Shown here in pieces: positions 47,829-64,000 of a stretch of 64,000 nucleotides of DNA (position 1 is the first letter of the stretch; the number at the start of each line of letters is the position of its first letter). The notes under the pieces were generated by a model. The model did no database searches and was not told where the DNA came from. It worked only from the letters and a program-made list of their open reading frames with translations. The DNA comes from Parasphingorhabdus sp. (GTDB taxonomy: Bacteria > Pseudomonadota > Gammaproteobacteria > Arenicellales > CAJQKF01). The stretch is from assembly GCA_047615875.1 (NCBI GenBank), contig JBLHGU010000001.1:1647-65646 (forward strand), given 5' to 3'. The position numbers and the translations under genes were made by a program.

Positions 47829-48806
47829 ATGAATCAACCCGTTCGCGTTGCTGTTACTGGAGCAGCCGGCCAGATCAGTTATTCAATGCTGTTTAGAATT
47901 GCTGTTGGCGATATGCTAGGTCCAGATCAGCCGGTAATCTTAAGTCTGCTGGAAATTACCCCAGCTCTGGACGCGTTGGCTGGTGTGGTAATGGAAATTG
48001 AAGACTGTGCATTTCCACTTATTGCGGGAATCGAAATTTCAGATGATCCAATGGTTGCGTTTAAGGACATCGACTATGCTTTACTGGTCGGTGCTCGTCC
48101 GCGTGGACCAGGAATGGAGCGTGCAGATTTGTTGAAAGCCAATGCACAGATTTTCTCGGCCCAGGGTAAGGCTCTTAATGCGGTAGCCAGCCGTGATGTA
48201 AAGGTACTGGTAGTAGGTAACCCTGCAAATACTAACGCCTTGATTACCGCTTGCAATGCGCCGGATATCAATCCTGGACAGATTACTGCCATGACTCGAC
48301 TGGATCATAACCGTGCCATTAGCCAGCTAGCGGGTAAGACCGGTGCGCATTCCACCACCATCAGCAAAATGATCATCTGGGGAAATCACTCTGCGACTCA
48401 GTACCCTGATCTGCACCATGCGACGGTAGAAGGTAAAGTCGCTACTGATTGTATTGATCAGGCCTGGATGACGGATGAGTTCATTCCAGTAGTTCAGCAA
48501 CGTGGCGCGGCGATCATCAAAGCCCGTGGCGCTTCTAGTGCGGCTTCTGCAGGTTCTGCTGCTATTGATCACATGCGTACCTGGGCTATAGGCAGTGCCG
48601 AAGGCGATTGGGTTAGCATGGGTATTCCTAGCGACGGCAGCTATGGTATCGAGCCTGGTATCGTTTATTCCTACCCTGTAGTATGTAAAGACGGCAATTA
48701 CGAAATTGTGCAAGGCCTTGAGGTCAGCGATTTTAGCCGTGAGAAGATGCAGGCAACCGAGCAGGAGTTACGTGAAGAACGGGCAGCTATCGAGGAGCTG
48801 TTGTAA
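47829..48806 (+). CDS. mdh: Malate dehydrogenase (housekeeping, LDH-unlike type)
   Basis: 325 aa. [50 protein letters not shown] and WGNHS motifs. It is followed by a strong terminator. Confidence 0.9.
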
Positions 48807-49002: not shown

Positions 49003-50460
49003 GTGTTACCAAACTTACCATCCTGTGAATTTACTGGCTCCGAGTTATGCGAACTTGAGGCTCATGTAGTCGTCGATAAGCTGCGTAATGGTGAAATTAG
49101 TAGTGAAGATCTTGTTGCAGCGTCTCTCGCGCGAATCGAAAGCGTTGAGCCTGCTGTAAATGCTATGCCAACGGTGTGTGGCGAACGGGCCTATGAATTT
49201 CTGAAAAAGTGGCGTGCCGATGGTTCCGGGAGTAGTCAGCAAGCGAGTTGGCTGGGTGGGTTGCCCATAGCGATCAAAGATCTCAACGAAGTCGCTGGGG
49301 TTAGAACAACTTACGGCACTCCGGCCCTGGCAGAGAATATTTCTGTGATAAGTGATCCCCTGGTTGAACGCCTGGAAAGTAACGGCGCACTGGTGGTGGG
49401 TAAAACCAATACACCGGAGATGGGCGCGGGTGGAAATACTTTTAACTCAGTTTTTGGTATGACCCGAAACCCCTGGGATACATCTTGCAACGCAGGGGGT
49501 TCATCTGGAGGTGCTGCGGTATCTCTAGCTACGGGCGAGGTTTGGTTAAGTCATGGTTCAGATCTTGCTGGATCGTTACGTACACCTGCAGCTTATTGTG
49601 GTGTAGTTGGTTTTCGACCCAGTCCGGGTAGGGCAGGCGGTGCACCTAAGGATCTTGGTTTCAATATGGAGGCAGTGTCGGGTCCAATGGCGCGTAGCGT
49701 TACTGATTGCGCGCTATTCCTTGATGCCATGTCAGGATTTGATCCGAGATTGCCGCTTTCGTATCCGGCTCCAACTGAACCCTTTCAGCAGGCAGTTCGA
49801 CACGCAACTAGCAATATACGTGTGGCTTACAGTAGCACGTTGGATGGATTTGCTCCGGTTTCACGACAAGTCGATAAGATTCTCCGACAGGCTATGGATA
49901 TGATTTGCGGAGAGGGTGGTGAGGTCGAAGAACAATGCCCTGAATTGCCCGATCTTGATCATTCATATCGAGTGTTGCGGGGTATGTTGTGGGCTGCAGG
50001 ACCAGGATTTGCACCGGAAAAGGTTCAGTCTCAATTTAAATATACCCTGATGGATAATATTGATTTCGGTCGTAAGCTAACGATCGAAGATCTATGTAAA
50101 GCGCAACGTGAACGAACAATTTTATTCAGAAATATGCGGCTCTTTCTGGAGAACTTTGACGTATTGGCATGCCCAACGGTTGGATTAATGCCAGGACCTG
50201 TAGAAGAAGAGTTTCCAACCGAGTTGGATGGTGAACCTCTTACGGATTACATAGAGTGGCTGCGTTTCTCCTATCTTTCTACTGCGACCAGTCTGCCTTC
50301 ATTATCTATGCCTGTGGGTTTTTCGTCCGAAGGTTTGCCGGTTGGATTGCAGTTGATCGGGCCGCCCAGAGGCGAGGCCAAATTGTTGGCTGTGGCCCGC
50401 GCCATTGAACTGGCCGTGGGCGGTCCAATCAAACCGATCGATCCAAATATAAACCATTAA
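49003..50460 (+). CDS. Amidase (amidase-signature family)
   Basis: 485 aa. The AS motif GGSSGGAA has the upstream Lys (IAIKDL). GTG start with GAGGAG upstream. Confidence 0.8.
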   Translation: MLPNLPSCEFTGSELCELEAHVVVDKLRNGEISSEDLVAASLARIESVEPAVNAMPTVCGERAYEFLKKWRADGSGSSQQASWLGGLPIAIKDLNEVAGVRTTYGTPALAENISVISDPLVERLESNGALVVGKTNTPEMGAGGNTFNSVFGMTRNPWDTSCNAGGSSGGAAVSLATGEVWLSHGSDLAGSLRTPAAYCGVVGFRPSPGRAGGAPKDLGFNMEAVSGPMARSVTDCALFLDAMSGFDPRLPLSYPAPTEPFQQAVRHATSNIRVAYSSTLDGFAPVSRQVDKILRQAMDMICGEGGEVEEQCPELPDLDHSYRVLRGMLWAAGPGFAPEKVQSQFKYTLMDNIDFGRKLTIEDLCKAQRERTILFRNMRLFLENFDVLACPTVGLMPGPVEEEFPTELDGEPLTDYIEWLRFSYLSTATSLPSLSMPVGFSSEGLPVGLQLIGPPRGEAKLLAVARAIELAVGGPIKPIDPNINH

Positions 50461-50555
50461 CCAGCTGTTTTTACTTAACTTGATTACCCGTAGGATGTGT
50501 ACCACCTGTTCAAGGGTGGGACTTGATAACCGCTTAATTAACACCGAATAACCTT

Positions 50556-52082
50556 ATGTATACCAGTAATTACTTAGCCAGCAAGCTTCGTTTGGCAACC
50601 CTTGATCGACCTGATGCTGTTTTTGCCCGAATCCATGAGACTGGCGAGATAATCTCCTATGCAGATTTCTTTGAAGCTTCCGAGCGTCTGGCGTCAGCGA
50701 TGGTCTCTGCTGGAGTGAAGCCCGGTGATCGGGTTGCTATGCAAGTTAAGAAATCGATCCACGCGTTGCAGCTTTACATGGCCACAATATTGGCTGGTGG
50801 CGTGTTCTTGCCTTTAAACACGGCTTATACCGCTAAAGAAGTTAGCTATTTTCTAGGCGATGCAGAACCGGCACTTTTCGTATGTGATCCAGAGCGCTAT
50901 GAATCTTTAGTTGCAGTCGCACAACAGTGCGGTGTTGCAACCGTATGGACGTTGTCTGGAAATGGCGAGGGCACCTTAATTGATGCACAGCGTGCCGCAA
51001 ATAGTGGGTTCGAAGCGGTATCGAGACAGGCAGATGATCTTGCAGCGATCCTCTATACCTCGGGCACAACGGGAAGATCCAAAGGCGCGATGTTAAGTCA
51101 TAATGGATTAGCCTCCAATGCAGAGGTGTTGCAGGTTTACTGGGAATTTAACCAGGACGATGTATTGATACATGCACTACCCATTTTTCACACCCATGGT
51201 TTATTTGTCGCCACTAATATTACGATGACGGCCGGTTCAGCCATGATTTTTATGGCGTCTTATAATGCTGAGGCCATTATTGACTATATGCTTTCTGCGA
51301 CAGTGTTAATGGGTGTGCCGACTTTTTATGTGCGATTGCTTGAGCAGGCAGAACTCGCTAATGCGGCTGCGAATATGCGTTTGTTCGTGTCAGGCTCTGC
51401 GCCTTTATTAGCCGAGACCCATCATAGTTGGAGTCGAGTCACAGGCCATGCCATTCTTGAGCGCTATGGTATGACAGAGACCAACATGAATACTTCTAAT
51501 CCTTACCATGGTGAGCGGATTGCCGGTACAGTGGGCTTTCCGTTGCCGGGTGTGGAGGTTGTAATAACTGATCCACAAACTGCTGTAGAACTTTCCCCCG
51601 GTGAGATTGGTATTCTAGAAGTGCGCGGCCCAAACGTGTTTATGGGTTATTGGCGCATGCCAGAGAAAACCGCAGAGGAGCTCAGGTCTAATGGTTTTTT
51701 TATTACCGGAGACTTAGGTTTAATTGATGATAAAGGCTATGTGCAGATTGTGGGTCGTGATAAAGATCTGATTATTTCTGGTGGATATAATATTTATCCG
51801 AAAGAAATTGAATTGCTTATCGATGATTTGCCAGGCGTAAAAGAATCTGCAGTGATTGGTGTGGCGCACCCAGATTTTGGCGAAGCTGTGGTCGCCGTTA
51901 TTGTGCCGGCAGCTGACCAGAAACTTGATGAAGATAATATTGTTCGTGGTTTGCAAGATGATCTGGCTAGATTTAAACAACCCAAGCGTCTATTCTTTGT
52001 GGACGAATTGCCACGCAATGCGATGGGCAAAGTGCAGAAAAATCTTTTAAGAGACAGGTATGCGAGTTTGTTCACGGATTGA
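50556..52082 (+). CDS. Malonyl-CoA-synthetase-like (MatB-like) acyl-CoA synthetase
   Basis: 508 aa. YTSGTTGRSKG P-loop, GYWRMPEKT and GDLGLIDDKGYVQIVGRDKDLIISGGYNIYPKEIE. The N-terminal third is collinear with rhizobial MatB as remembered. Confidence 0.7.
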   Translation: MYTSNYLASKLRLATLDRPDAVFARIHETGEIISYADFFEASERLASAMVSAGVKPGDRVAMQVKKSIHALQLYMATILAGGVFLPLNTAYTAKEVSYFLGDAEPALFVCDPERYESLVAVAQQCGVATVWTLSGNGEGTLIDAQRAANSGFEAVSRQADDLAAILYTSGTTGRSKGAMLSHNGLASNAEVLQVYWEFNQDDVLIHALPIFHTHGLFVATNITMTAGSAMIFMASYNAEAIIDYMLSATVLMGVPTFYVRLLEQAELANAAANMRLFVSGSAPLLAETHHSWSRVTGHAILERYGMTETNMNTSNPYHGERIAGTVGFPLPGVEVVITDPQTAVELSPGEIGILEVRGPNVFMGYWRMPEKTAEELRSNGFFITGDLGLIDDKGYVQIVGRDKDLIISGGYNIYPKEIELLIDDLPGVKESAVIGVAHPDFGEAVVAVIVPAADQKLDEDNIVRGLQDDLARFKQPKRLFFVDELPRNAMGKVQKNLLRDRYASLFTD

Positions 52083-52455: not shown

Positions 52456-53592
52456 ATGTCAACCGAGGCAATTGTAGTCGGTGCCGGCATAGCAGGTTCC
52501 ATGACTGCATTGGCGTTGCAGCGTCGAGGGGTCAGCACGACTTTAATAGATCGCTGGGAGCCAGGTCATTCCAGAGCGTCATCCACTGACTATAATCGTA
52601 TGATTAGAGCCATTCATGGCCACGATGAGTTCTATACTCTGTGGGCCAGGGAAGCTCGTGAGCGTTGGTTGGAACTACAGGCAGAGACTGGCCAGCGTCT
52701 GTATTACGAATGTGGTGCTTTGATTCTGGCGACCGAAGGACACTGTCATTGGGAAGATGCCACCGAAAAGACATTTCAGAAATTGGGTGTGCCACATCAT
52801 AAGTTCGGGCGAGATGAAATTTCCCTGCGTTTTCCACAATTCAAATGTGACGATATCTCCTACGCTTTGTACGAGCCAGAGGCGGGCATGATTATGGCCC
52901 ACCGAGCGGTAATCACCACCGTAGATTTATTTAAGCGCGAAGGTGGGGTGGTCAAGCGTGGCCGCGTTACCACCGACAATCAAGAACGATTGCATCTCGA
53001 TGGAAAAGCATTAAACGCTGACTTTATGGTTGTTTGTACCGGTCCGTGGATGTCTGATATGTTTCCCAAAACCATCAAACCTATTGGCAATATTGTTGGT
53101 GTGAACGTACTTTATACCTCTACGCCCGATGGTAGTGAAGCTTTCGATCGGACACAAATGCCCTGTTGGATTGATCATGGTCAGGGTTCATTCGGCATGC
53201 CTTCAGTAGAAGGCTGTGGCGTAAAGGCGGCAGTGGTTTTTCCAGATAAGATTGATATTGATCAGGATGAACGGTTAGTGCGCCGCGAGACACTTTCACG
53301 AACGCGCCGGTATATCCAGAAACGCTTGCCGGGATTAGTTGGCGAGCGCGTGGTGGATTCAAAATTCAATCAGATAATATTGACCCCTGATACCCACTTT
53401 ATCGTTGACTGGCACCCCGAGCAGAAAAATGTACTGATAGCCGGTGGTTGCTCTGGTCATTTGTTTAAGCACGGCCCAGTATTTGGTGATTTCGCCGCTG
53501 GGGTGGCCTGTCGAGAATATGGTACGGCGGCGCATTTTAAATTGGCTGGGCGCAGAAAACTCTCTGCCAAGGAAAGTCCATCCGGGCGTTAG
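52456..53592 (+). CDS. FAD-dependent amine oxidase, monomeric sarcosine oxidase / N-methyltryptophan oxidase-like
   Basis: 378 aa. AIVVGAGIAGSMTA dinucleotide fold, GHSRASSTDYNRMIR, and the C-terminal AGGCSGHLFKHGPVFG paralleling MSOX GFSGHGFKF. Confidence 0.7.
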   Translation: MSTEAIVVGAGIAGSMTALALQRRGVSTTLIDRWEPGHSRASSTDYNRMIRAIHGHDEFYTLWAREARERWLELQAETGQRLYYECGALILATEGHCHWEDATEKTFQKLGVPHHKFGRDEISLRFPQFKCDDISYALYEPEAGMIMAHRAVITTVDLFKREGGVVKRGRVTTDNQERLHLDGKALNADFMVVCTGPWMSDMFPKTIKPIGNIVGVNVLYTSTPDGSEAFDRTQMPCWIDHGQGSFGMPSVEGCGVKAAVVFPDKIDIDQDERLVRRETLSRTRRYIQKRLPGLVGERVVDSKFNQIILTPDTHFIVDWHPEQKNVLIAGGCSGHLFKHGPVFGDFAAGVACREYGTAAHFKLAGRRKLSAKESPSGR

Positions 53593-53694: not shown

Positions 53695-54990
53695 GTGACC
53701 AGCAATGTAGAAATGTTGCCAGAAGGCACACATACCGTCGTTCTTGGTGTGGGCGATGCTAACGGCATCATGCGCGGCAAGCGTATCCCTGCCAGTCATT
53801 GGCCAACAATCTGCAAAAATGGCAATGCGCTATCGCTCGCAACGCTTGCTATCGATATGACCTGTGACGTCTGGGATACGCCCTATGTCAATTTCGATAA
53901 TGGCTATCCAGACATGCATATGTTTCCCATAGCTCCGCCAATAGCCTCTCCCTGGGAGTCCGGCGTGGCAATCTGTATGGGCTATGCAGAGGGCATGGAT
54001 CATAAACCGGTACCAATTGATCCCCGTGGTGCGTTGATTGCTCAGTTGGAAAGAGCCGCGCAAATGGGCTATGACATTAATGTCGGTACCGAGTTAGAGT
54101 TTTATCTGCTAGATCCTGAGACTAAGCGTCCAAGAGATCAGGGTATTCAGGTTTATAGCCTAAGCCGTGCCGCGGAGCTGGAGCATGTTCTTGGCCCCAT
54201 CCGACAACACTTAAACGCTCTTGGCATTCCAATCGAGCAGTCAAATCCGGAATATGCTGCAGGCCAGGTGGAAGTCAATATTCATTACGACGAGCCGTTG
54301 GTGGCAGCAGATCGAGTTGTCCTGTTTCGTGCCATGATCAAGGAACTCGCCATGCATCATGGCTATCTGGCAACTTTCATGTCGAAACCATTTCTGGAAG
54401 AGTCAGGCAGTGGTTTTCATACCCATCATTCATTGTGGAAGAATGGCGTAAACCAGTTCTCCGATAACGGAAAATTTAATGAGCTGGGTAAGTCCTATCT
54501 TGCTGGTTTGCAAAAGCGTATGCCGGAAACAGCATTGGTGAGTGCAACCACGCCAAATGCCTACCGTCGTCGTAAACCCTATACATTTTGTCCGATAAAT
54601 TCTGCCTGGGGACTGGATAACCGTACAGTGGGGTTGCGCGTTATCGAGGGCTCAGATCATGCTGTTCGTGTGGAGAAGCGTGATGGATCTGCCGATTGTA
54701 ATCCTTATTATTTATTGGCATCTGAAATTGCAGCGGGCCTGGATGGTATTGAACAAGGCATGCAGCCCACCGAAATGTGTGCCGGAAATGCTTATGAGTT
54801 TGAGGACGCAGTGCCTTTACCTAACAACATAAATGATGCATTGGTCCTGGCGAAAAATTCTGACTGGCTGAGAGATGTGATCGGCGAAGATCGCCTGACC
54901 ATCCTCATCCAACAGGCAGAGAGGGAAGTTGAATTTCTAGCAGCACCGATTAACCCTGTTGAGCTGGAACGCTATCTGGGTAATTTCTGA
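53695..54990 (+). CDS. Glutamine synthetase family protein (gamma-glutamyl-amine ligase-like; PuuA/GlnT/IpuC-type)
   Basis: 431 aa, GTG start after GAGGATTGGAGAA. Catalytic-domain motifs are GTELEFYL, NPEYAAGQVEVN, MSKPF...SGSGFHTHHSL and NAYRRR. Confidence 0.8.
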   Translation: MTSNVEMLPEGTHTVVLGVGDANGIMRGKRIPASHWPTICKNGNALSLATLAIDMTCDVWDTPYVNFDNGYPDMHMFPIAPPIASPWESGVAICMGYAEGMDHKPVPIDPRGALIAQLERAAQMGYDINVGTELEFYLLDPETKRPRDQGIQVYSLSRAAELEHVLGPIRQHLNALGIPIEQSNPEYAAGQVEVNIHYDEPLVAADRVVLFRAMIKELAMHHGYLATFMSKPFLEESGSGFHTHHSLWKNGVNQFSDNGKFNELGKSYLAGLQKRMPETALVSATTPNAYRRRKPYTFCPINSAWGLDNRTVGLRVIEGSDHAVRVEKRDGSADCNPYYLLASEIAAGLDGIEQGMQPTEMCAGNAYEFEDAVPLPNNINDALVLAKNSDWLRDVIGEDRLTILIQQAEREVEFLAAPINPVELERYLGNF

Positions 54991-55253
54991 TGCGTATCGG
55001 TCGAGTCACAGGTTCGCTCACTGCCACAATTAAGGAAGCCCAACTGGCGGCTATCCGGCTGCTGGTGGTTGATATTGAGGATGGAACGGGCAATGTAATT
55101 GAGGCCGCTCATGTGGCTGTAGATACGCTCGGTGCCGGCACTGGCGATCTGGTGTTGCTAACCACAGGCTCAGCTGCTCGTATTCCAACAGAATATTCCG
55201 GTCTTTCAGTTGATGCATCAATCGTCGCAATTGTCGACAACATACATATTTAA
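54990..55253 (+). CDS. BMC vertex (pentamer) shell protein, EutN/CcmL/PduN family (BMC-P)
   Basis: 87 aa. MRIGRVTGSLTAT...HVAVDTLGAGTGDLVLLTTGSAAR...DASIVAIVD is collinear with EutN. The ATG overlaps the preceding TGA. Confidence 0.9.
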   Translation: MRIGRVTGSLTATIKEAQLAAIRLLVVDIEDGTGNVIEAAHVAVDTLGAGTGDLVLLTTGSAARIPTEYSGLSVDASIVAIVDNIHI

Positions 55254-55301: not shown

Positions 55302-55595
55302 ATGGCAACTAAAGCAGAACTCGGTCAGACAGCACTTGGCATGATTGAAACCCGTGGTGTCGTCGCCGCAATTGAAGCCGCCGATGCAATGGTAAAGGCT
55401 GCAAATGTTCAGATTGTGCGTCAAAGCAAAGCAGGTGGTGGCCTGGTTTCTATTATGATTCGCGGCGAAGTCGGTGCAGTCAAAGCTGCTACTGATGCCG
55501 GTGCCAGCGCAGCCAATAAGGTTGGCGAAGTGGTTGCAGTTCATGTAATCCCTCGTCCGCATGACGAAGTGGAAGCTGTTCTGGCTGAAATCTAA
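55302..55595 (+). CDS. BMC hexamer shell protein, PduA/EutM family (BMC-H)
   Basis: 97 aa. [29 protein letters not shown]...[41 protein letters not shown] is almost motif-for-motif PduA. Confidence 0.95.
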
Positions 55596-55652: not shown

Positions 55653-56849
55653 ATGGATAACGATTTCGAACAATTTACCCGCGCTGTACAGGAAAACAAG
55701 GGCTCTGTCAGAGTCGCTGAAACTGCTCAAAAAATTGATCGGGTATGCGTTCTTGGCGGTGGCCTGGATGGCAGAATACTTGCGGCATTGTGCCTAGCGG
55801 AAAATGCCGCCGTTACTCTGTTTAGTGCCTATGGTGCTGAGTTGAATGACCTGCGCAAACGGGGTGGAATCACCTTGCGAGGTGAGGGCCCTATCGGCAC
55901 GTTTCAGGTTGATCAGGAATCTGTTCCTTCAATTCAGATAACCGCAGAGCTGGATGCTGCGGTGGCAGACGCTGATTTAGTTATTCTGACAGGCCCGGTA
56001 CATAAGCAACGTACTTACGCCATGGTTCTGGCGGACCATCTACGTGACGGGCAAACGCTGCTCATCGCTCCAGGCAGAACTCTGGCGGCTATGGAAACCA
56101 ACTGGTTATTGCGGGTTGGTGGTTGCCAGGCGAATATTTCGGTGGTTGAAATGTCTGGGCTGCCTTATTGGGTACATAGCCGCGACGGTCACTTTGATTT
56201 ATGCAAGGCCAGTGGGGTTAGTGCGGCGTGTTTGCCATCAGGACAGCCTGCACTGCAATCCGCCCTACAAAAACTGTTGCCAGGTACAACTGGAACGCTA
56301 TCGACATTATCCAGCAGTTTTTCCGATGCAAGTGGTGCCGTCGAAAGCGTCGCGTTATTACTGGGTGGTTCACTGGTAGCTCAGCCTGCTAAGTCAATTC
56401 CTAATGGTGCTGTACCTCTGCAGGAGAATGCCACCTTTCATAGTTTGTTAGAAAGTGAATCGAGTCGTAATTTGGTTGCTCAATTATTGTCCGAACGTCG
56501 CAAGGTTGCGCGGAAGTTTGGCGTGCGTGGATTGCCTGACGATGAGCAATGGACTGATATGGCTGCGGGAAGCAAGAAGGGCAGTGGTAGCCGGCCAATA
56601 CCGAATACAGAACATGCCAGAGGCATGTTGCGCTGTGCCGTAACAGGTTCTCTGGTACCACTTCAGTCTGCTGGTGAGATGACTGGTACGCCCACACCTT
56701 CTACAGATGCCATGATTAATTTAGCCAGTGCCGCCCTGGGTCATGATTTAGCCAGTGCGGGTCGTCGCTTAAATTCTATGGGTATTAGCCCGGGTAGTTC
56801 CGATGAGGTTAGAAAGCAGGTTGAAGCCATGATAAAAGGGGAAGCATAG
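55653..56849 (+). CDS. NAD(P)-binding Rossmann protein, opine (octopine/nopaline) dehydrogenase-like, with about 30-aa N-terminal extension
   Basis: 398 aa. VCVLGGGLDGRILA (GxGxxG), then LILTGPVHKQ and LIAPGRT as in the opine-DH / glycerol-3-P-DH-N fold. The family call is tentative and was made by eye. Confidence 0.45.
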   Translation: MDNDFEQFTRAVQENKGSVRVAETAQKIDRVCVLGGGLDGRILAALCLAENAAVTLFSAYGAELNDLRKRGGITLRGEGPIGTFQVDQESVPSIQITAELDAAVADADLVILTGPVHKQRTYAMVLADHLRDGQTLLIAPGRTLAAMETNWLLRVGGCQANISVVEMSGLPYWVHSRDGHFDLCKASGVSAACLPSGQPALQSALQKLLPGTTGTLSTLSSSFSDASGAVESVALLLGGSLVAQPAKSIPNGAVPLQENATFHSLLESESSRNLVAQLLSERRKVARKFGVRGLPDDEQWTDMAAGSKKGSGSRPIPNTEHARGMLRCAVTGSLVPLQSAGEMTGTPTPSTDAMINLASAALGHDLASAGRRLNSMGISPGSSDEVRKQVEAMIKGEA

Positions 56850-58228
56850 TGGATAACGACTTACTTTCTATTGCTGCTGCAAGACGTGCTAGCGAGAATG
56901 CCTGGGATGCCTTTCAGAAATTCAGGGTGTTTGACCCGGCTGATATTGATGCCATCGTTGAAGCAATGGCCCGCGCTATTGAACCGGAAGCTCGCCGTCT
57001 GGGTGAAATTGCCGTAGAGGAAACCGGTTACGGTAACGCTGAAGATAAACGACTGAAAAATTTGTTTAATGCGGTCTCTGTCGCAGACTGGTTGCGCGAT
57101 GTTAAAACTCTGGGACTATTGTGGCGCGATGAAATTACCAAAGTGGCGGCTATTGGCGAGCCGATGGGAGTGGTAGCTGCATTAATTCCAGTTACCAATC
57201 CAACTTCAACAATTATTTATAAAGTTCTGTCTGCTGTTAAATCGGGCAATGCCATTGTCTGTGCGCCTCATCCTCGCGGCGTACGTGCCGGCGTAGAAAC
57301 AACCAGGGTTATGGCTCGGGCTGCAGAGCAGCTTGGTGCACCGAAGGGACTTATTCAGTGCCTGGAATCCGTAACCATTCAGGGCACTGCTGAACTAATG
57401 AAGCATCGTCGAACCTCTGTCGTGTTAGCGACCGGCGGGCCCGGCATGGTTAAAGCAGCTTACTCTTCGGGCAAACCTACTCTTGCCGTAGGGGCAGGCA
57501 ATGTACCGTGTTTTGTGCATTCGTCCATGGCATCTGAATTGGCTGAAGTGGCAGAGCAAGTCATTGTTTCCAAATCTTTTGATTATGGAACAGCCTGCGT
57601 TTCAGAACAGGCTGTTATTGTTGAACGAAAACTAAGTCGTGAGTTAAAGGCTGAATTCAAATTACGTGGTGCCTATTTCTGTACGCCGGCTCAATCCGAA
57701 CGACTGGGAAAAGTAATTTTCACCGACAGGAATATGATGAATCCTGACCGTGTTGGGCAATCACCTCAGGTGCTTGCTGATCTGGCAGAAATCCCCTTGC
57801 CACCAGGCGTTCGTGTGCTGGTTTCCGATCAGTCCGAAGTCGGTTGGCAGGCGCCGCTTTCAGCAGAAAAATTGAATCCTGTTTTAGCCTGGTACGAGGT
57901 AGACAATACGGCTAAAGGTATTCAGGTAGCTGAAGACATTGCCCGTTTCGGCGGCTGGGGGCACACAGCAGTACTGCATAGTAACGATGCAGAAGTCACT
58001 GCCGAGTACAGTCGATTACCGGTGGGTCGAATTATTGTTAATACACCAGGTATCCACGGCGGCATGGGTTTTTCTACTGATCTTGAGCCAAGCTTTATGT
58101 TGGGCACCGGTACTTCATCGGGTTCCATTGTTTCCGATAATGTGACCGCACTACATCTTATTAATATTAAACGTGTTGCCTATGAGTCCAGGCCGTGGCG
58201 CGACATCTATCAAGTTTACGGAGAATAG
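56849..58228 (+). CDS. CoA-acylating aldehyde dehydrogenase (EutE/PduP/AdhE-N type)
   Basis: 459 aa. ATGGPGMVKAAYSSGKPTLAVGAGNVP, catalytic Cys in FDYGTACVSEQAVIV, and a length typical of BMC AldDH. The GTG start overlaps the upstream TAG. Confidence 0.85.
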   Translation: MDNDLLSIAAARRASENAWDAFQKFRVFDPADIDAIVEAMARAIEPEARRLGEIAVEETGYGNAEDKRLKNLFNAVSVADWLRDVKTLGLLWRDEITKVAAIGEPMGVVAALIPVTNPTSTIIYKVLSAVKSGNAIVCAPHPRGVRAGVETTRVMARAAEQLGAPKGLIQCLESVTIQGTAELMKHRRTSVVLATGGPGMVKAAYSSGKPTLAVGAGNVPCFVHSSMASELAEVAEQVIVSKSFDYGTACVSEQAVIVERKLSRELKAEFKLRGAYFCTPAQSERLGKVIFTDRNMMNPDRVGQSPQVLADLAEIPLPPGVRVLVSDQSEVGWQAPLSAEKLNPVLAWYEVDNTAKGIQVAEDIARFGGWGHTAVLHSNDAEVTAEYSRLPVGRIIVNTPGIHGGMGFSTDLEPSFMLGTGTSSGSIVSDNVTALHLINIKRVAYESRPWRDIYQVYGE

Positions 58229-58231
58229 GCT

Positions 58232-58861
58232 ATGGCTAGTAAATTAACCATCAGAGCGTTGATGCAAATCGACCGTTTACAGCCAAAGTTTGCGGCCTAC
58301 AACGGTGCCACAGTGCAAGGCTCTATACCATTGGCAGGAGACACCATTCTGATTGGCGAAATTGCCCCTGGCAATGAAGTGTTTAGCTTGATTGACGTGG
58401 CCCTGAAAGCCAGCCGGGTTGAGGCAACCAGTCAGATTGTAGAGCGCGAATTCGGATTTTTTATTTTACGCTCCCCATCAAATGCGGAGGTCAGCGCTGC
58501 CCGCGACGCGATTCTTTCTGAACTTGGCATGTCATTGGAAGATCGTATTAAACCGGTTGTAGAGTCTACTCAGATAATTACTTCCGTTGAGCCCTATCAG
58601 GCACAGTTATTAAACAAGTGGTCAGCTGGAACACTGGTTGTACCTGGTAAAACGCTGGGCATTATAGAGTGTGCACCTGCCGCCTATATTTCCATTGCTG
58701 CAAATGAGGCTGAGAAAGCTGCTGAAATTGATATTGTGCAAGTCAGAGCGGTTGGCCGTTACGGTCGTTTGTTTTTCTCCGGTAGTGAAGACTCAGTGAA
58801 AACGGCCATCGATGCTGCCAGCGAAGCAATAAGAGATGTAACTGGCAAGGCGAGTAGTTAG
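58232..58861 (+). CDS. Tandem-BMC-domain shell protein (BMC-T)
   Basis: 209 aa with two segments of about 95 aa, each with a BMC-like core (..VFSLIDVALKASRVEA.. and ..AYISIAANEAEKAAEIDIV..). The second resembles the EutL-type (permuted) pattern. The topology cannot be settled by eye. Confidence 0.7.
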   Translation: MASKLTIRALMQIDRLQPKFAAYNGATVQGSIPLAGDTILIGEIAPGNEVFSLIDVALKASRVEATSQIVEREFGFFILRSPSNAEVSAARDAILSELGMSLEDRIKPVVESTQIITSVEPYQAQLLNKWSAGTLVVPGKTLGIIECAPAAYISIAANEAEKAAEIDIVQVRAVGRYGRLFFSGSEDSVKTAIDAASEAIRDVTGKASS

Positions 58862-58875
58862 TTCGGGTTACTTAC

Positions 58876-60066
58876 ATGAGCACCAAACGAAGCGTAATCA
58901 CTGACGAACATGTTCACGACGCCTTTCGCAAGGGCAGACAGTTTATAGAGGTGCTGCCGAATACAATTGTTACCGCTCAGGCCAGGGAAACCGCCCAACG
59001 TCTGAAAATAGCCCTGCGTGATGGCCCTTTGGAACAACCGCTAGTCGTAAAAACAGACGGCTCTACGGCTATGCGAAGAGTGCTGTTCCGTCGTCATCCA
59101 GCCTTCGAACCACCACGCCGACAATCTCAACGTGGAGCCGCAAAAATACCCCACCTGGCGCTAGTTGGCGCAGGTGGTGTAGGCATGAATATTGCCCATC
59201 TAGCAGCTAATTGTGAGATGGCCGATAATATTTCCATTATTGACGTCTTGCCAGGAGCAGCCGAAGCAGTTGCGCTTGATTTGCAACACAGCTCTGGCGT
59301 TAGTCGATCAAGCACACATCTGGTTGGTGGCACGGGTCTTGGCCTGGTTGCGGATGCTGATGTAGTTGTCGTTACCGCAGGAAGGCCACGTACACCAGGT
59401 ATGACCAGAGCAGATCTGCTGACCATCAATGGTCGGGTTATAAACAGCGTGGGTGAACAAATTGCCAATCTGGCGCCTAATGCAATTGTTATAGTCGTTA
59501 GCAATCCGCTGGATGAAATGACATTCAAAATGCTCCAGGTCACCGGCTTTCCCCGTGAACGTGTTCTGGGCATGGCAGGCACGCTGGATAGTTCAAGATT
59601 TCGTTTTGCGCTAGCTAAAGCGGCCGGTGTATCGGTAAACGCTGTAGAAGCCATTACGCTTGGTAGTCACGGCGAGGAAATGGTGCCGGTGGCGTCGAAG
59701 GCCACAATAAAGGACAGAAGCCTGGATGTATTTCTGAGTTCACAGCAAATCGAACAGTGCCGAATGGAAACCATTGGTGGAGGCGCCGCAGTCGTTGGTT
59801 TGAAAAAAACCGGTTCCGCTACGCTTGCTCCGGCCCAGGCGACAGTTGAGTTGCTTGATCATATTCGTGGTGCCCGCGCCGGTTCTGTACCTGTTTCCGT
59901 GTTGCTTAAAGGAGAGTATGGCATCCACGATACCGTGGTTGGAGTGCCGTGCAAGCTGGGTCGTTCCGGTGTAGTTGAAATTGTTGAGCTGAGTCTCGCT
60001 GAAAAAGAAATTGCCGAATTAAAGGCAGCCGCTAAAGCGGTCAAGTCTCGCCTGGAAAGTAGCTAA
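58876..60066 (+). CDS. LDH/MDH-family 2-hydroxyacid dehydrogenase (MDH-like Arg at the specificity position) with about 89-aa N-terminal extension
   Basis: The core starts at about aa 90: LALVGAGGVGMNIA, TAGRPRTPGMTRADLL, VVSNPLD, LDSSRFR, GSHGEEMVP. The N-terminal SVITDEHVHDAFRKGRQFIEVLPNTIVTAQARETAQRLKIAL resembles the EutQ N-terminus. Confidence 0.8.
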   Translation: MSTKRSVITDEHVHDAFRKGRQFIEVLPNTIVTAQARETAQRLKIALRDGPLEQPLVVKTDGSTAMRRVLFRRHPAFEPPRRQSQRGAAKIPHLALVGAGGVGMNIAHLAANCEMADNISIIDVLPGAAEAVALDLQHSSGVSRSSTHLVGGTGLGLVADADVVVVTAGRPRTPGMTRADLLTINGRVINSVGEQIANLAPNAIVIVVSNPLDEMTFKMLQVTGFPRERVLGMAGTLDSSRFRFALAKAAGVSVNAVEAITLGSHGEEMVPVASKATIKDRSLDVFLSSQQIEQCRMETIGGGAAVVGLKKTGSATLAPAQATVELLDHIRGARAGSVPVSVLLKGEYGIHDTVVGVPCKLGRSGVVEIVELSLAEKEIAELKAAAKAVKSRLESS

Positions 60067-60482
60067 TGAGCGTGGCAAGTGTCGCAACCGGTGGCAGGTT
60101 TGAAACTATTGGCGCTTACAGCCGTGCAAAGCGAGTAGGTCCCTTCGTTTTTGTTGCCGGCACAACCGCTATTGAGCCCAATGGTCGACTACATGCCCCC
60201 GGCGATACCTATGCCCAAAGTAAATATATTTTTCAACGGATAGAAAGTGCACTTAACGAGCTAGGTGCTGAATTACGTCATGTGGTAAGAACACGAGCCT
60301 TTTTAACCGATATGAAAAGCGGCGGCGGTGATTTTGTTCGTGCTCATGGTGAAGTATTTGCTGGCATCAACCCGGTTACCAGTGGTGTTGAAGCTGGACT
60401 GACAACTGAAGGCATGATGATTGAAATTGAAGTGGATGCCTTGATTCATGATAAGGATGGGCATATCGACTATTCACTATAA
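60066..60482 (+). CDS. RidA/YjgF/Rid family (enamine/imine deaminase fold) protein
   Basis: 138 aa. FVFVAGTTAIEPNG...YAQSKYIFQRIESALNELGAELRHVVRTRAFLTD...IEIEVDA. The ATG overlaps the upstream TAA. Confidence 0.75.
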   Translation: MSVASVATGGRFETIGAYSRAKRVGPFVFVAGTTAIEPNGRLHAPGDTYAQSKYIFQRIESALNELGAELRHVVRTRAFLTDMKSGGGDFVRAHGEVFAGINPVTSGVEAGLTTEGMMIEIEVDALIHDKDGHIDYSL

Positions 60483-60554: not shown

Positions 60555-61865
60555 ATGAAACATGCAAATAGATTGCGCAAAACAGCAATCGCCTCTGCCC
60601 TGGCAATGGGTCTAGGATTGTTAGCGCCTGCCCAGGCTGCCGACGAAGTGGTAGTGGGCTACATTGGATCATTCGCTTCTGATAGCGGGCTGAGCACCAT
60701 TCGCGGTGCTGAAATCGCCATTGAGGAATTGAATGAAAAAGGTGGGTTGAACGGCAAACAAATCAGAATGGTCATGGCCGATACGCGAGAAGATGTTGCG
60801 GAAGGTATTAGGGCTTACGAATATTTGAACGACGTTGAAAAGGTCGATTTCATTATCTCTGGCAGCATCGATGATGTCTCCCTTGGCTGGTTGCCACGTA
60901 TGGTTGAGTATCGAACACCTACACTGGATACATGGACTTCCTATATCGGCATAATCGATAAGGTTGTTGAGGATTACGAAAACTACAAAATGTATTTTAT
61001 GAATGTTGCTAGTGATGAAGCATTGGCGACCCTGTATGTTGACTTCGGTAAAGATGTACTAGCTAAAGAAATGGGCTACAAAACCACCGTTATCATGCAC
61101 GAAGATACCGCTTTTGGTGGTGCGATAGCTGGTCTGGTCGAAGCCCTGCTTGCGCCGGATGCGGGAATAGAGATTGTCGATAAGATTATCTATGACCCCA
61201 ACACGGTAGACTTTGCTCCCTTGTTTAATAAGGCTGTGGCTACCGGTGCAGATTTTATTTATATAGTTTCTTCTGTGAAAAGCCAGGTGCCGGCATCTCA
61301 GTATGTAAAACTGCAGGTGCCAATGCCTATGACCGGGGTTAATGTCGCGGCATTCGGCCAGGACTTCTGGAATGATACCGGTGGCCTGGGTGGTGGTACT
61401 TCCACGTTAAGTCCGATTCCTTCAGTAGGTTTCGATATGGACGATCGGTCAGCAGCGTTCCTCGAGAAATACAAGGCCAAGCATGGTGATAACCGTCCCA
61501 TCGTTCCCCACTTTAACGGTTTTAACGCTTATTACGGTATCTATGGTGCCTTCGCTGCAGCAGAACGTGCCGGTGGTTTCGCGCCGTTAGATGACTGGGT
61601 ACGCGAGATGGAAAATGAAGACCTGAAGATTTACAAAGATGGTGAGCTTTGGCTTCGATATGGTTTCTGGAAGCCCGGCGAGATTGAGCCTCGTACCAAT
61701 CGCGAGTATACCCATAATATTAAGTTTGATATTACCGCGCCATTTGATGATGGTGCACCGGCCATGGTCGTTCTGCAGTGGTATGAAGATGGCACAACGG
61801 CTGTTGTTTATCCGCCCAAATATGCCACTGGCAAATTTGAGGAACCTTCCTGGATTAAGAAATAG
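60555..61865 (+). CDS. ABC transporter periplasmic substrate-binding protein (Liv/branched-chain amino acid-amide type)
   Basis: 436 aa with a signal peptide (ASALAMGLGLLAPAQA) and a type-I PBP pattern (VVVGYIGSFASDSG...AEIAIEELNEKGGLNGKQI). Confidence 0.75.
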   Translation: MKHANRLRKTAIASALAMGLGLLAPAQAADEVVVGYIGSFASDSGLSTIRGAEIAIEELNEKGGLNGKQIRMVMADTREDVAEGIRAYEYLNDVEKVDFIISGSIDDVSLGWLPRMVEYRTPTLDTWTSYIGIIDKVVEDYENYKMYFMNVASDEALATLYVDFGKDVLAKEMGYKTTVIMHEDTAFGGAIAGLVEALLAPDAGIEIVDKIIYDPNTVDFAPLFNKAVATGADFIYIVSSVKSQVPASQYVKLQVPMPMTGVNVAAFGQDFWNDTGGLGGGTSTLSPIPSVGFDMDDRSAAFLEKYKAKHGDNRPIVPHFNGFNAYYGIYGAFAAAERAGGFAPLDDWVREMENEDLKIYKDGELWLRYGFWKPGEIEPRTNREYTHNIKFDITAPFDDGAPAMVVLQWYEDGTTAVVYPPKYATGKFEEPSWIKK

Positions 61866-61931
61866 TAGTTTGTTGATAGGGCATCGTGATCAGCGTATCA
61901 CGATGCCATTCACAACTGGAATCGAAACTCA

Positions 61932-62783
61932 ATGGCACACATACTGATACAGGGGCTGTTGTTAAGCGGTTTATACGCTTTACTGGCAGTAGGTTTTACC
62001 ATGATCTTTAGTGTGGGTCGTGTGCTGAACCTGGCTTACGGTGTTTACATCATGCTGGGCGGCTATGTTTATTATCATGCTGCTCAGGTTTTGGGCATCC
62101 CAAAATTGGCAAGTTTTGTAATAGCAATAATGGCGGGCGCTGTATTTGGCATGCTGATATATCAGCTACTAGTCAAGCGCTTAAAGGGTGACTCGGTCGC
62201 CATCGAAATATCTACCTTGATACTCGCCGTAGTTATGCAGGCGCTAATCATACTAATTTACTCTCCTTCACCGAAAAGTATGTGGCCGCTAATACCGGGC
62301 GTGCTGCGTTTTGAAGGAGTCAGTGTTACCTATAATATTGTTATAGCCGCGATTACCAGCTGGGTCGTATTGGGCGGATTGCTGTTATTTATTAGCAAGA
62401 CACATATCGGTCGTGCAATAAGAGCCGTATCGATGGACCCCAAGGGTGCATTAATTTCAGGTATAAGTACCAATCAGGTTAATTTGGTTACCTGGGCCAT
62501 TTCCGGCGGTCTTGGTGCGTTGGCAGGTGTATTTCTTGCCACCTATACTCAGCTTGATCCTGGCATGTGGGTCGGACCCTTAATCATTGCTGTAGCCGTA
62601 GTGATAGTTGGTGGTATTGGCAGCATTGCTGGCAGTATGGTTGCTGCCCATATTATTGGTATGCTGGAAACTATTACCACGACTATGATTGCTGCAGAGT
62701 TACGTGGTGTCACCACTATGTTGCTCATAATTATCGTACTGGTAGTCGCCCCCAAGGGCCTGTTCGGCAAGGCAGAGTTATGA
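61932..62783 (+). CDS. ABC transporter permease, LivH type
   Basis: 283 aa, multi-TM, with an N-terminus and G-rich helices typical of LivH. Confidence 0.8.
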   Translation: MAHILIQGLLLSGLYALLAVGFTMIFSVGRVLNLAYGVYIMLGGYVYYHAAQVLGIPKLASFVIAIMAGAVFGMLIYQLLVKRLKGDSVAIEISTLILAVVMQALIILIYSPSPKSMWPLIPGVLRFEGVSVTYNIVIAAITSWVVLGGLLLFISKTHIGRAIRAVSMDPKGALISGISTNQVNLVTWAISGGLGALAGVFLATYTQLDPGMWVGPLIIAVAVVIVGGIGSIAGSMVAAHIIGMLETITTTMIAAELRGVTTMLLIIIVLVVAPKGLFGKAEL

Positions 62784-63751
62784 GTTGTTGGCGCACCGCT
62801 ACCGGTAAGGCTTTGATGGGCTGGGGTGCTTTTGCTCTGCTTATGTTGTTGCTACCCACTGTCGCCAGTACGGGAACATTGCGGGTTTTTATTTTCGCCC
62901 ATTTCCTCGCCATGTTCGCTATAAGCTGGGACATTATGTCTGGCAAAACCGGTTATATTAGTTTTGGTCATCCTTTTTTAATTGGCATTGGTGGCTATAC
63001 CACCGCAATGCTGACCTATCATCTGGACTGGCCGATAGCGATCACGATTCCAATTGCAGTGCTGGCTACCATGATTGCCGGTACGTTGTTTTTTCTACCA
63101 GCGCTACGCACCCGTGGAACCTATTTCGCTTTGGTTACACTGGCCTTTATGGAGCTTATGTATGGTTTGGTTCAGGTCATTGCTCCAAAGGTGACAGGTG
63201 GCACAAGAGGCCTTTCCGGTATTCCAAGTATCGTCACTGGTGCCTTACCCAACTATTATTTATCACTGGTTGTTTTGTTGATCCTGGCCTTCGGGTTATG
63301 GTTGTTAATTCGTACAAGACTGGGTACCGCATTGAGCGCCATCAGTATGGATGAAGATGCCATGCGCGCCAGTGGGCTGGATACAACTCGACTAAAATTG
63401 TTCGCCTTCATGGTCAGTGCTTTTGTGGCGGGTTTGGCTGGTGCGCTCTATATACATTACCTCGGCTCCATAGCACCCCGTAGTTTATTTGATATCAATT
63501 TTCTATTCACTATTTTGGTCGCCAGTTTACTAGGTGGTGCTGGAACTATTATCGGGCCAATAATCGGCGCCTTTTTCCTGACTTTTTTACTGGAATTTCT
63601 ACGTCCCTATATTCCAGGTACAGAAAGATATCTGATTTATGGTGTAGTAGCTTTGGTGCTCTATGTTTATCAGCCCAAGGGTATTCTGCATATTTTGCAG
63701 ACTTTCTATGCCTGGCTTATGCAACGCAAGGCGGCAGGTCGGTCCGGGTGA
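62780..63751 (+). CDS. ABC transporter permease, LivM type
   Basis: From ATG 62780, overlapping the livH-type stop (ATGA). SFGHPFLIGIGGYT and GTYFALVTLAF motifs. The track ORF start at 62567 is an out-of-gene extension. Confidence 0.8.
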   Translation: MSCWRTATGKALMGWGAFALLMLLLPTVASTGTLRVFIFAHFLAMFAISWDIMSGKTGYISFGHPFLIGIGGYTTAMLTYHLDWPIAITIPIAVLATMIAGTLFFLPALRTRGTYFALVTLAFMELMYGLVQVIAPKVTGGTRGLSGIPSIVTGALPNYYLSLVVLLILAFGLWLLIRTRLGTALSAISMDEDAMRASGLDTTRLKLFAFMVSAFVAGLAGALYIHYLGSIAPRSLFDINFLFTILVASLLGGAGTIIGPIIGAFFLTFLLEFLRPYIPGTERYLIYGVVALVLYVYQPKGILHILQTFYAWLMQRKAAGRSG

Positions 63752-64000
63752 CGGTGCTATTTGAAGCCCGTGATCTGGTCAAATCTTTCGGTGGCCTGTG
63801 TGCGACCAATCATGTGTCGTTGCATGTGAATGAAGGGGAAACGTTGGGTATTATTGGTCCAAATGGCGCAGGGAAAACGACGTTGTTTAACCTCTTCTCG
63901 AACGAAATTACAGCGGATGCCGGTGATGTGATTTTGCAGGGTAAGAGTCTGAAAAATGTTTCTACGGATAGAAGAGTTCGTGCCGGTTTAGTGAGAACCT
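63748..64000 (+). CDS. ABC transporter ATP-binding protein, LivG type (5' part, runs off the right edge)
   Basis: Translation gives VTVLFEARDLVKSFGGLCATNHVSLHVNEGETLGIIGPNGAGKTTLFN (Walker A). The GTG overlaps the upstream TGA. Confidence 0.8.
   Translation, partial: MTVLFEARDLVKSFGGLCATNHVSLHVNEGETLGIIGPNGAGKTTLFNLFSNEITADAGDVILQGKSLKNVSTDRRVRAGLVRT

Follow-up and report, generated by a model that had tools for sequence, protein, structure and literature searches.

The 64,000-nucleotide stretch analysed here (the window; positions 1,647 to 65,646 of contig JBLHGU010000001.1, assembly GCA_047615875.1, listed as Parasphingorhabdus sp. and placed by GTDB in the Arenicellales) carries, at 58876..60066 on its forward strand, an open reading frame (ORF) of 396 amino acids plus stop codon that fuses a malate dehydrogenase (MDH) to an N-terminal extension, within a locus encoding the shell of a bacterial microcompartment (BMC). 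The extension and its possible role are the subject of this report. The catalytic core, residues 93–396 (59152..60063, forward strand), is an NAD-dependent MDH of the tetrameric type that resembles lactate dehydrogenase (LDH), with Pfam Ldh_1_N at residues 94–232 (121.7 bits) and Ldh_1_C at residues 236–394 (88 bits). An earlier reading, made from the letters of the DNA and here called the sequence-only reading, held that the first ~89 residues (58876–59142) precede the Rossmann core and are absent from the housekeeping mdh gene at 47829–48806, and both the ORF and the Pfam boundaries agree with it. The housekeeping enzyme lacks the extension, is 23% identical to the fusion and belongs to a different MDH clade.

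The fusion passes the NCBIfam malate dehydrogenase model NF004863 (PRK06223) with 312.8 bits against a cut-off of 283, and the closest solved structures are those of Chloroflexus aurantiacus MDH (1UXH and 1GUY; E=3e-70, 301 residues aligned), whose catalytic motifs are identical. Residues R172, R178, N210, D238, R241 and H265, equivalent to R102, R109, N140, D168, R171 and H195 in LDH numbering and aligned with the catalytic residues of 1UXH, are invariant in an alignment of 42 full-length homologs, and so is D123, the NAD-specificity Asp. The sequence-only reading had singled out an MDH-like Arg at the specificity position; this is Arg172 in the GRPRTPGM motif (nucleotides 59389–59391, position 102 in LDH numbering). 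With its active site intact, the fusion is most likely a catalytically competent, NAD-dependent enzyme.

Four segments can be distinguished in the extension, all on the forward strand. Residues 6–49 (58891..59022) make up module M, hereafter the module, a putative docking domain resembling the H1/H2 region of EutQ, with the consensus 'VI..E.V..A...GR...E..PGDIVT..ARE.A.RL.I.L' and a predicted β-α-β-β-α-β fold. It is followed by a short conserved connector, residues 50–60 (59023..59055; consensus 'dgP.e.p', amino-acid identity 0.52 over 75 orthologs), by the Arg-rich Block 2, residues 61–80 (59056..59115; identity 0.56), which contains a predicted helix at residues 62–73, and by a variable basic linker, residues 81–92 (59116..59151), whose identity across orthologs drops to 0.19. 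Block 2 (consensus 'tDG.ta.rR.LyRR.P.W.aP') is conserved as strongly as the module, and its R68 and R72 are invariant. AlphaFold2 was run on the full-length alignment (mean predicted local distance difference test score, pLDDT, of 86.6) and on the extension alone; it places strands at residues 6–8, 23–26, 30–32 and 46–49 of the module and helices at 10–19 and 34–43, with pLDDT of 85–94. Confidence is low in the connector, 82–86 for helix 62–73 in the extension-only model, about 50–68 in the linker, which is predicted to be disordered, and high in the MDH core beyond. Helix 62–73 was also considered as a classical amphipathic encapsulation peptide (EP) and rejected, as its hydrophobic moment is 0.22–0.28 versus 0.54 for the EP of Escherichia coli EutE.

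The extension is present in all 120 closest database homologs (58–78% identity, 98–100% coverage) and is kept in all 80 genomic loci examined, which come from species-representative genomes. Among 75 orthologs, nucleotide identity at codon positions 1, 2 and 3 is 0.60, 0.72 and 0.33 for residues 6–49 and 0.66, 0.69 and 0.28 for residues 61–80, compared with 0.68, 0.79 and 0.32 for the catalytic core. The extension is thus conserved and, on this codon pattern, under purifying selection.

Likeness of the extension to the EutQ N-terminus had been proposed in the sequence-only reading, which gave the E. coli sequence in close agreement with the real one and quoted a peptide of the fusion whose letters are correct, although it spans residues 6–47 and not 6–46. 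The proposal stands for the first ~45 of the 89 residues and goes no further. The NCBIfam EutQ model matches the extension with E=1.7e-4 (residues 5–65 on profile positions 2–63), BLASTP against EutQ of E. coli MG1655 gives E=4e-4 over 46 residues, and hhalign of a 42-sequence extension profile aligns residues 6–50 with EutQ 3–48 at E=1.5e-5. A profile built from non-MDH carriers of the module only (A3) matches E. coli EutQ residues 2–47 with an hhalign probability of 96.6% (E=4.8e-10) and the MDH extension with 99.4% (E=1.5e-21). Searched against a six-frame translation of the window, A3 yields a single match, the MDH N-terminus (E=1.3e-19; runner-up E=0.65), and no further copy of the module was found in the rest of the 64 kb. 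By these comparisons, the module is homologous to the part of EutQ that precedes the cupin, and aligns in register with its residues 3–48. Pfam has no match to the first ~92 residues even at E<=10, nor did Pfam scans find PF06249, Cupin_3 or Cupin_2 in the fusion, whose C-terminal part is MDH; the Pfam EutQ model covers EutQ only from about residue 85 onwards, and the module therefore falls outside any Pfam family. Block 2 shows no detectable similarity to EutQ residues 62–99 (H3/H4). When the extension was searched as a profile against the PDB, the best E was 0.76; the EutQ structure 2PYT covers residues 100–229 only.

The module recurs on other proteins. An exhaustive hmmsearch with a profile of MDH extensions only, against 1.84 billion (1.84e9) representative proteins, returned 113 proteins at E<=1e-3, EutQ proteins with PF06249 among them (E=7e-7 to 1e-3). 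Outside MDH fusions the matches are limited to profile positions ~4–50, and Block 2 was found in MDH fusions only. Which families carry such an extension had been left by the sequence-only reading to a profile search of this kind, and they include EutQ cupins, RpiB, Flavoprotein, Pta and adenosyltransferase proteins. In Pfam scans of the 47 longer non-MDH matches, the EutQ cupin (PF06249) was found in 10, with the module at the N-terminus and the cupin as a separate C-terminal region; LacAB_rpiB and Flavoprotein were found in 3 each, PTA_PTB, Cob_adeno_trans and Cyclophilin-like/DUF3830 in 1 each, and about 28 had no Pfam domain. Five of the seven non-MDH carriers whose neighbourhoods were looked up adjoin shell genes; of the other two, one lies on too short a contig and one has no shell gene in the stretch that could be seen. 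A word-indexed search had no matches with the 92-residue extension alone, a limit of the sensitivity of the tool and not of biology, and with a 49-sequence module profile it found only 12 short unannotated proteins, subject to the same limit.

Several of these carriers have architectures of their own. Two proteins of ~90 residues, P0189 (L007 7001–7273) and P0218, match positions 1–100 of the EutQ profile and resemble cupin-less EutQ N-regions, consisting of the module and a C-terminal helix; the gene for P0189 lies in a BMC locus beside Pta, two BMC-H genes, an aldehyde dehydrogenase (AldDH) and an EutJ-like gene. Proteins of ~260 residues (P0210, L005 1874–2650; P0216, P0230, P0184 and P0190) start with an EP-like helix and carry the module at the extreme C-terminus; some match Pfam Flavoprotein, and their C-terminal part weakly matches NCBIfam TIGR02536 (eut_hyp). 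The P0210 gene belongs to an SPU-type locus with AldDH, RpiB and DeoC, where its neighbours are BMC-H on one side and BMC-P on the other. Two or three tandem modules with EP-like helices and no Pfam domain occur among P0155, P0203, P0205, P0211, P0224, P0157, P0161, P0174, P0181 and P0217, and the gene for P0157 (L004 7001–7492) directly follows BMC-H, BMC-P and AldDH; such proteins could act as multivalent adaptors. P0220, the module with a cyclophilin-like domain (L008), is like the MDH fusion encoded directly after a BMC-Tdp gene. Residues 2–43 of E. coli EutT (L001 8503–9306) align weakly and in register with the profile of the module (hhalign E=3.2e-4 at a probability of 39%), and in the metagenomic P0213 the module is joined to Cob_adeno_trans; a degenerate form of the docking module may be present in EutT. 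One half of the module, 'TPxARxxAxxxGIxL' (residues ~30–47, 58963–59016), weakly resembles the first helix of Pfam E3_binding (PF02817), the peripheral-subunit-binding domain of the E2 component of 2-oxoacid dehydrogenases. Only ~20 residues match, in 2 of the 47 carriers, P0157 among them (25.3 bits; model cut-off 23.7), and the window extension itself does not match the model; the resemblance probably reflects a shared motif or convergence, homology not being established.

By its gene content, the locus around the MDH fusion is of the MIC2 type in the BMC catalogue of 2021 (Sutter et al. 2021). All its genes lie on the forward strand. It starts with an FAD-dependent amine/amino-acid oxidase of the DAO family, resembling MTOX and sarcosine oxidase (52456..53592), and a glutamine-synthetase-like enzyme of the pfam00120 family, a candidate γ-glutamyl-amine synthetase (53695..54990; Gln-synt_C, 286 bits), for which the NCBIfam models of type III glutamine synthetase and γ-glutamylputrescine synthetase score under their cut-offs. 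The shell is minimal, with one BMC-P pentamer (54990..55253; Pfam EutN_CcmL, 82.6 bits), one BMC-H hexamer (55302..55595; Pfam BMC, 97.7 bits; 63% identical to E. coli EutM) and one BMC-Tdp, a tandem-domain trimer similar to CcmP and CsoS1D (58232..58861; NCBIfam CcmP, 203 bits, and Pfam BMC). Between hexamer and trimer lie an NAD(P) oxidoreductase similar to opine dehydrogenase and 6-phosphogluconate dehydrogenase (6PGDH) (55653..56849; weak matches to Octopine_DH, ApbA_C and NAD_Gly3P_dh_N), whose ortholog in locus L090 matches Octopine_DH, and an acylating AldDH similar to EutE and PduP (56849..58228; Aldedh, pfam00171). The N-terminus of the opine-dehydrogenase-like protein, DFEQFTRAVQEN (residues 4–15, nucleotides 55662–55697), is amphipathic and EP-like, with a hydrophobic moment of 0.56, similar to that of the E. 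coli EutE EP (0.54); an EP of ~10 residues has been recorded for the MIC2 6PGDH-like protein (Sutter et al. 2021, Nat Commun 12:3809). No terminal extension or EP was found in the AldDH, which aligns with TIGR02518 from residue 2 (499 bits) and has an N-terminal hydrophobic moment of 0.16. Downstream of the MDH fusion follow a RidA/YjgF-family protein (60066..60482; Ribonuc_L-PSP, 78 bits), whose start overlaps the MDH stop codon, and an ATP-binding cassette (ABC) transporter (60555..64000) with a periplasmic binding protein, two permeases and the start of the ATPase, which extends past the end of the window. No ORF for a phosphotransacylase (PduL or Pta) was found between 52456 and 64000, and no alcohol dehydrogenase in the locus. 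The features that define MIC2 are thus all present in the window, namely an AldDH without EP, an extended LDH/MDH, a 6PGDH-like protein with EP, a pfam00120 enzyme, a minimal shell and the lack of a phosphotransacylase. Directly upstream, at 49003–52082, ORFs of 485 and 508 residues look by eye amidase-like and similar to AMP-dependent acyl-CoA synthetases.

The same arrangement is found in related genomes. A scan of species-representative genomes with full-length alignment gave 313 relatives of the MDH, of which the best 80 were examined; all 80 are extension-bearing fusions, from Arenicellales, Granulosicoccaceae, Thioglobus/SUP05, Chromatiales, Rhodobacterales, Hyphomicrobiales, Rhizobiaceae and Geminicoccaceae, and those nearest to the window protein (66% identity) are from Arenicellales. 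Cultured hosts turned up by the scan include Ruegeria profundi, Lentibacter algarum, Sulfitobacter sediminilitoris, Hoeflea poritis and Microbaculum marinum. In 79 of the 80 loci the gene immediately before the fusion encodes BMC-Tdp, the exception being a contig end. Where at least 4.5 kb of upstream sequence is available (63 loci), every MIC2 gene is found in 62 or 63, the DAO-family oxidase in 62 and RidA downstream in 59; the ABC transporter is kept in 50 of the 55 full-length loci. The stop codon of the Tdp gene overlaps the start codon of the MDH gene in 61 of 75 loci (ATGA in 33, TGATG in 28), which points to coupled translation of the trimer and fusion genes. In one divergent fusion of a MIC2-type locus, P0147 (L090 9001–10188), the residues corresponding to R102, R109, N140 and D168 are gone, GRPRTPGMTR being replaced by DVAGSPQPSA, NPLD by GWPSE and LDSSRFR by LASARLV, yet the Rossmann motif, H195 and both blocks of the extension are retained; the fragments P0144 and P0149 go with it. 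P0147 is a probable pseudo-enzyme kept for a structural role, and its retention of both blocks despite the lost catalytic residues suggests that the extension is selected independently of catalysis. As to the DAO oxidase, it is co-directional with the BMC genes in the window, while in nearly all relatives it lies upstream of the glutamine-synthetase-like gene on the opposite strand, which would reflect a local rearrangement in this genome.

Some MIC2 loci give a hint of the pathway. At least 29 of the 55 full-length loci have a linked trio of GATase_6, GXGXG and Glu_synthase genes, whose architecture is that of the N-methylglutamate synthase MgsABC; it lies downstream in Gammaproteobacteria and upstream in several Alphaproteobacteria, and was seen as well at L002 15203–17197 and L090 1–2430. 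The MIC2 loci also encode a GntR/FCD regulator, the glutamine-synthetase-like enzyme (possibly GmaS-like), the DAO-family oxidase and RidA. This gene set suggests that MIC2 catabolises a primary amine via a γ-glutamyl-amide and an N-alkylglutamate, freeing an aldehyde for the AldDH. Neither GntR nor GATase_6-GXGXG-Glu_synthase genes were found elsewhere in the window, which stops inside the ABC transporter.

What the module might do can be read from EutQ. EutQ residues 1–99 suffice to target superfolder GFP to Eut BMCs (Yang et al. 2025, Sci Adv, PMC12487888). In the same study, EutQ lacking residues 9–41 (H1/H2) or 42–61 stayed with a cargo aggregate disconnected from the shell, and EutQ lacking residues 62–99 (H3/H4) remained with shell assemblies; H1/H2 was proposed to bind the shell at the EutM/EutL interface and H3/H4 to bind the encapsulation peptides of EutC and EutE, and EutQ was concluded to be encapsulated, bridging shell and cargo from inside (PMC12487888). 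Deletion of residues 1–100 had earlier been found to abolish EutM binding in vitro, and the EutM residues contacted by EutQ were mapped to K53, D57 and Q64, in a helix presumed to face the cytosol (Held et al. 2016, PMC4827028). The BMC-H of the window has K53 and D57 too, but so does every BMC-H compared, and for that reason their conservation was discarded as uninformative about binding.

On this background, we infer that the MDH fusion is probably docked to the shell through its EutQ-like module and re-oxidises NADH within the MIC2 compartment. By homology with EutQ H1/H2, the module (residues 6–49) would attach the MDH to the shell, its likely target being a surface to which BMC-H and the BMC-T trimer both contribute, the latter encoded by the gene that in most relatives appears translationally coupled to that of the MDH. 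A flexible tether would join the docking module to the core. Since MDHs of this type are tetramers, each enzyme could be held by four modules, a multivalent attachment. Once recruited, the enzyme would most likely re-oxidise the NADH produced by the co-encoded acylating AldDH, and possibly also by the opine-dehydrogenase-like enzyme, by reducing a 2-oxo-dicarboxylate, for example oxaloacetate, and so maintain the turnover of a private NAD+/NADH pool. Shell docking of the module is the part of this scheme that homology supports well. The proposal of the sequence-only reading that the extension recruits the dehydrogenase to the compartment is likewise favoured by the homology with EutQ H1/H2, by the linkage to BMC genes and by the recurrence of the module.

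A number of observations speak against this scheme or limit it. Putative shell binding by the MDH module is argued from the homology with EutQ, and of the EutQ N-region the extension has a detectable counterpart of the H1/H2 half only: the NCBIfam alignment stops at EutQ residue 63 and the hhalign alignment at residue 48, with no counterpart of H3/H4 detected. A Foldseek search of the PDB with the extension-only model found no structural neighbour (best E=0.13), and the trimer of the MIC2 shell is a BMC-Tdp, as against the EutL-type BMC-Tsp implicated for EutQ. A luminal location of the MDH is not assured because the EutQ contact was placed on the presumed cytosolic face of EutM (PMC4827028). 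As for catalysis, the fusion scores 269 bits on the bacterial MDH equivalog TIGR01763, under its cut-off of 351.85; it thus falls, by these models, in a diverged MDH subfamily whose substrate is not guaranteed, and oxaloacetate/malate is deduced from the MDH-type Arg102 alone. Around P0219, a fusion of the module with RpiB, the sequence that could be seen (7 kb upstream, 2 kb downstream) contains no shell gene. Finally, the Tdp–MDH junction of the window (58859–58878) has a 14-nucleotide spacer without an obvious Shine-Dalgarno sequence.

This last observation is also what could be said for an annotation artefact, in which the real start lies near residue 90 and the upstream codons are untranslated, an objection that the sequence-only reading had raised against itself. 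The chance of this is negligible: a downstream start is excluded by conservation of the extension at the protein level in the 120 homologs and 80 loci and by third-position divergence equal to that of the core, and the start codon overlaps the upstream stop in most relatives. A different suggestion, made in the catalogue supplement (Sutter et al. 2021), is that the extension is a ligand-binding or regulatory domain of an EutQ/cupin-like superfamily, with a small molecule from the pathway as its ligand. It is very improbable, given that the similarity is to EutQ residues 3–48 and not to the cupin, that the Pfam EutQ model misses the extension even at the most permissive threshold used, and that module and cupin occupy separate regions in the EutQ-family matches; moreover, the predicted fold is a 45-residue α/β unit and not a β-barrel, and the module is found on many unrelated enzymes in BMC loci.

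The remaining alternatives accept docking and differ on its side or its purpose. The MDH might sit on the cytosolic side of the shell, processing a metabolite that enters or leaves (for example malate or oxaloacetate) rather than internal NADH. The mapping of EutQ binding to the presumed cytosolic helix of EutM (PMC4827028), with K53 and D57 kept in the window BMC-H, would fit such an arrangement, but these residues are common to all BMC-H compared and do not discriminate, the 2025 study placed EutQ inside (PMC12487888), and an external MDH would leave the locus without internal NAD+ regeneration; we find an outer position improbable. The fusion might instead be the EutQ equivalent of MIC2, an adaptor bridging shell and cargo in which MDH catalysis is secondary or dispensable. 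EutQ itself bridges shell and cargo (PMC12487888), MIC2 loci have no separate EutQ and their AldDH has no EP, Block 2 is specific to MDH fusions and conserved as strongly as the module, P0147 keeps both blocks in a MIC2-type locus after loss of its catalytic residues, and cupin-less proteins made of module plus helix exist in other BMC loci. Such an adaptor would contact its cargo through Block 2 (residues 61–80) or the surface of the MDH tetramer, and the cargo could include the EP-less AldDH. Yet the catalytic residues are invariant in the window protein and 41 homologs, so catalysis appears to be selected in most lineages; Block 2 is neither similar to EutQ H3/H4 nor amphipathic; and the degenerate form is represented by one full-length sequence plus fragments. 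An adaptor with dispensable catalysis, with the cargo contacts just described, is therefore rather unlikely as a replacement for a shell-docked, NADH-oxidising MDH, with which a bridging role is nevertheless compatible and may coexist.

The extension is not new as such. The MIC2 LDH/MDH extension and its homology to EutQ were described in the supplement of the 2021 catalogue (Sutter et al. 2021, Nat Commun 12:3809), the window locus is a further member of the catalogued MIC2 kind, and to a specialist a docking role would be expected rather than surprising. The catalogue entry shares with the window locus the extended LDH/MDH and the proteobacterial range; it was based on 22 loci, gave the extension as ~70 residues and guessed at ligand binding, compared with the 313 relatives, ~92 residues and two conserved blocks reported here. 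The present analysis adds the mapping of the extension to the non-cupin H1/H2 region of EutQ, which suggests docking rather than ligand binding, as well as the module family beyond Pfam, the counts of linkage to BMC-Tdp, Block 2 and the probable pseudo-enzyme. Like the EutQ N-region, with which it shares about 30% identity between residues 6–50 and EutQ 3–48, the extension is N-terminal and has two helices followed by a flexible segment; unlike EutQ, the MDH fusion has no cupin or acetate-kinase domain, an Arg-rich block takes the position of H3/H4, and the putative partner is a BMC-H/BMC-Tdp shell instead of EutM/EutL. No work later than 2021 on MIC2, or on the module outside EutQ, was found in the literature searched.

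Enzymes of the LDH/MDH family have also been met in other compartments. They were proposed as the NAD-recycling partner of the AldDH in the PVM and MIC1 types (Axen et al. 2014, PMC4207490), and the sequence-only reading accordingly overstated the case in calling an encapsulated 2-hydroxyacid dehydrogenase an unusual solution to cofactor recycling. As in the window, the PVM (PvmO) and MIC1 enzymes have the LDH/MDH fold and occur in metabolosome loci without a classical alcohol dehydrogenase (Erbilgin 2014; PMC4207490), and MIC1 members have been reported with a similar extension (Sutter et al. 2021). For the PVM enzyme the presumed substrate is lactaldehyde, whereas the window protein has the MDH-type Arg102, and the catalogue models separate a PVM/EUT group from MIC1/2 (Sutter et al. 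2021). The LDH-like tetrameric MDHs of C. aurantiacus and other organisms, in turn, have neither the N-terminal extension nor a BMC context. The classical encapsulation peptides of PduP, PduD, EutC and EutE are N-terminal, followed by a poorly conserved linker, and recruit cargo; the module shares the position and the linker, and cargo recruitment is proposed for it too. However, they are single amphipathic helices of ~18 residues, while the module is predicted to be a folded α/β domain of ~45 residues.

It is plausible that the module represents a second class of encapsulation signal. A wider view, possible but on balance somewhat doubtful, is that of a general folded docking domain of BMCs, standing beside the amphipathic peptides and outside Pfam, with the MIC2 MDH as an assembly hub. 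Such a domain would be used in the EUT/GRM types (EutQ, possibly EutT and TIGR02536), in SPU (RpiB and flavoprotein-like proteins), in MIC1 and MIC2 (MDH) and in unclassified loci, fused to at least six enzyme families or present in one to three copies in standalone adaptors, and the hub role would explain why a catalytically dead MDH lineage has kept the whole extension.

For annotation, the ORF at 58876–60066 would be better described as the putative shell-tethered dehydrogenase of a MIC2 metabolosome than as a second housekeeping mdh. How cargo without an EP enters BMCs matters both for the BMC types of unknown function and for the engineering of synthetic nanoreactors. If MDH, RpiB, Pta and others do share a portable folded docking domain, it would provide a second, orthogonal targeting tag, and the module would give a direct experimental handle on MIC2 compartments, which are widespread in marine Alpha- and Gammaproteobacteria, among them Rhodobacterales, Hyphomicrobiales, Arenicellales and the SUP05 group.

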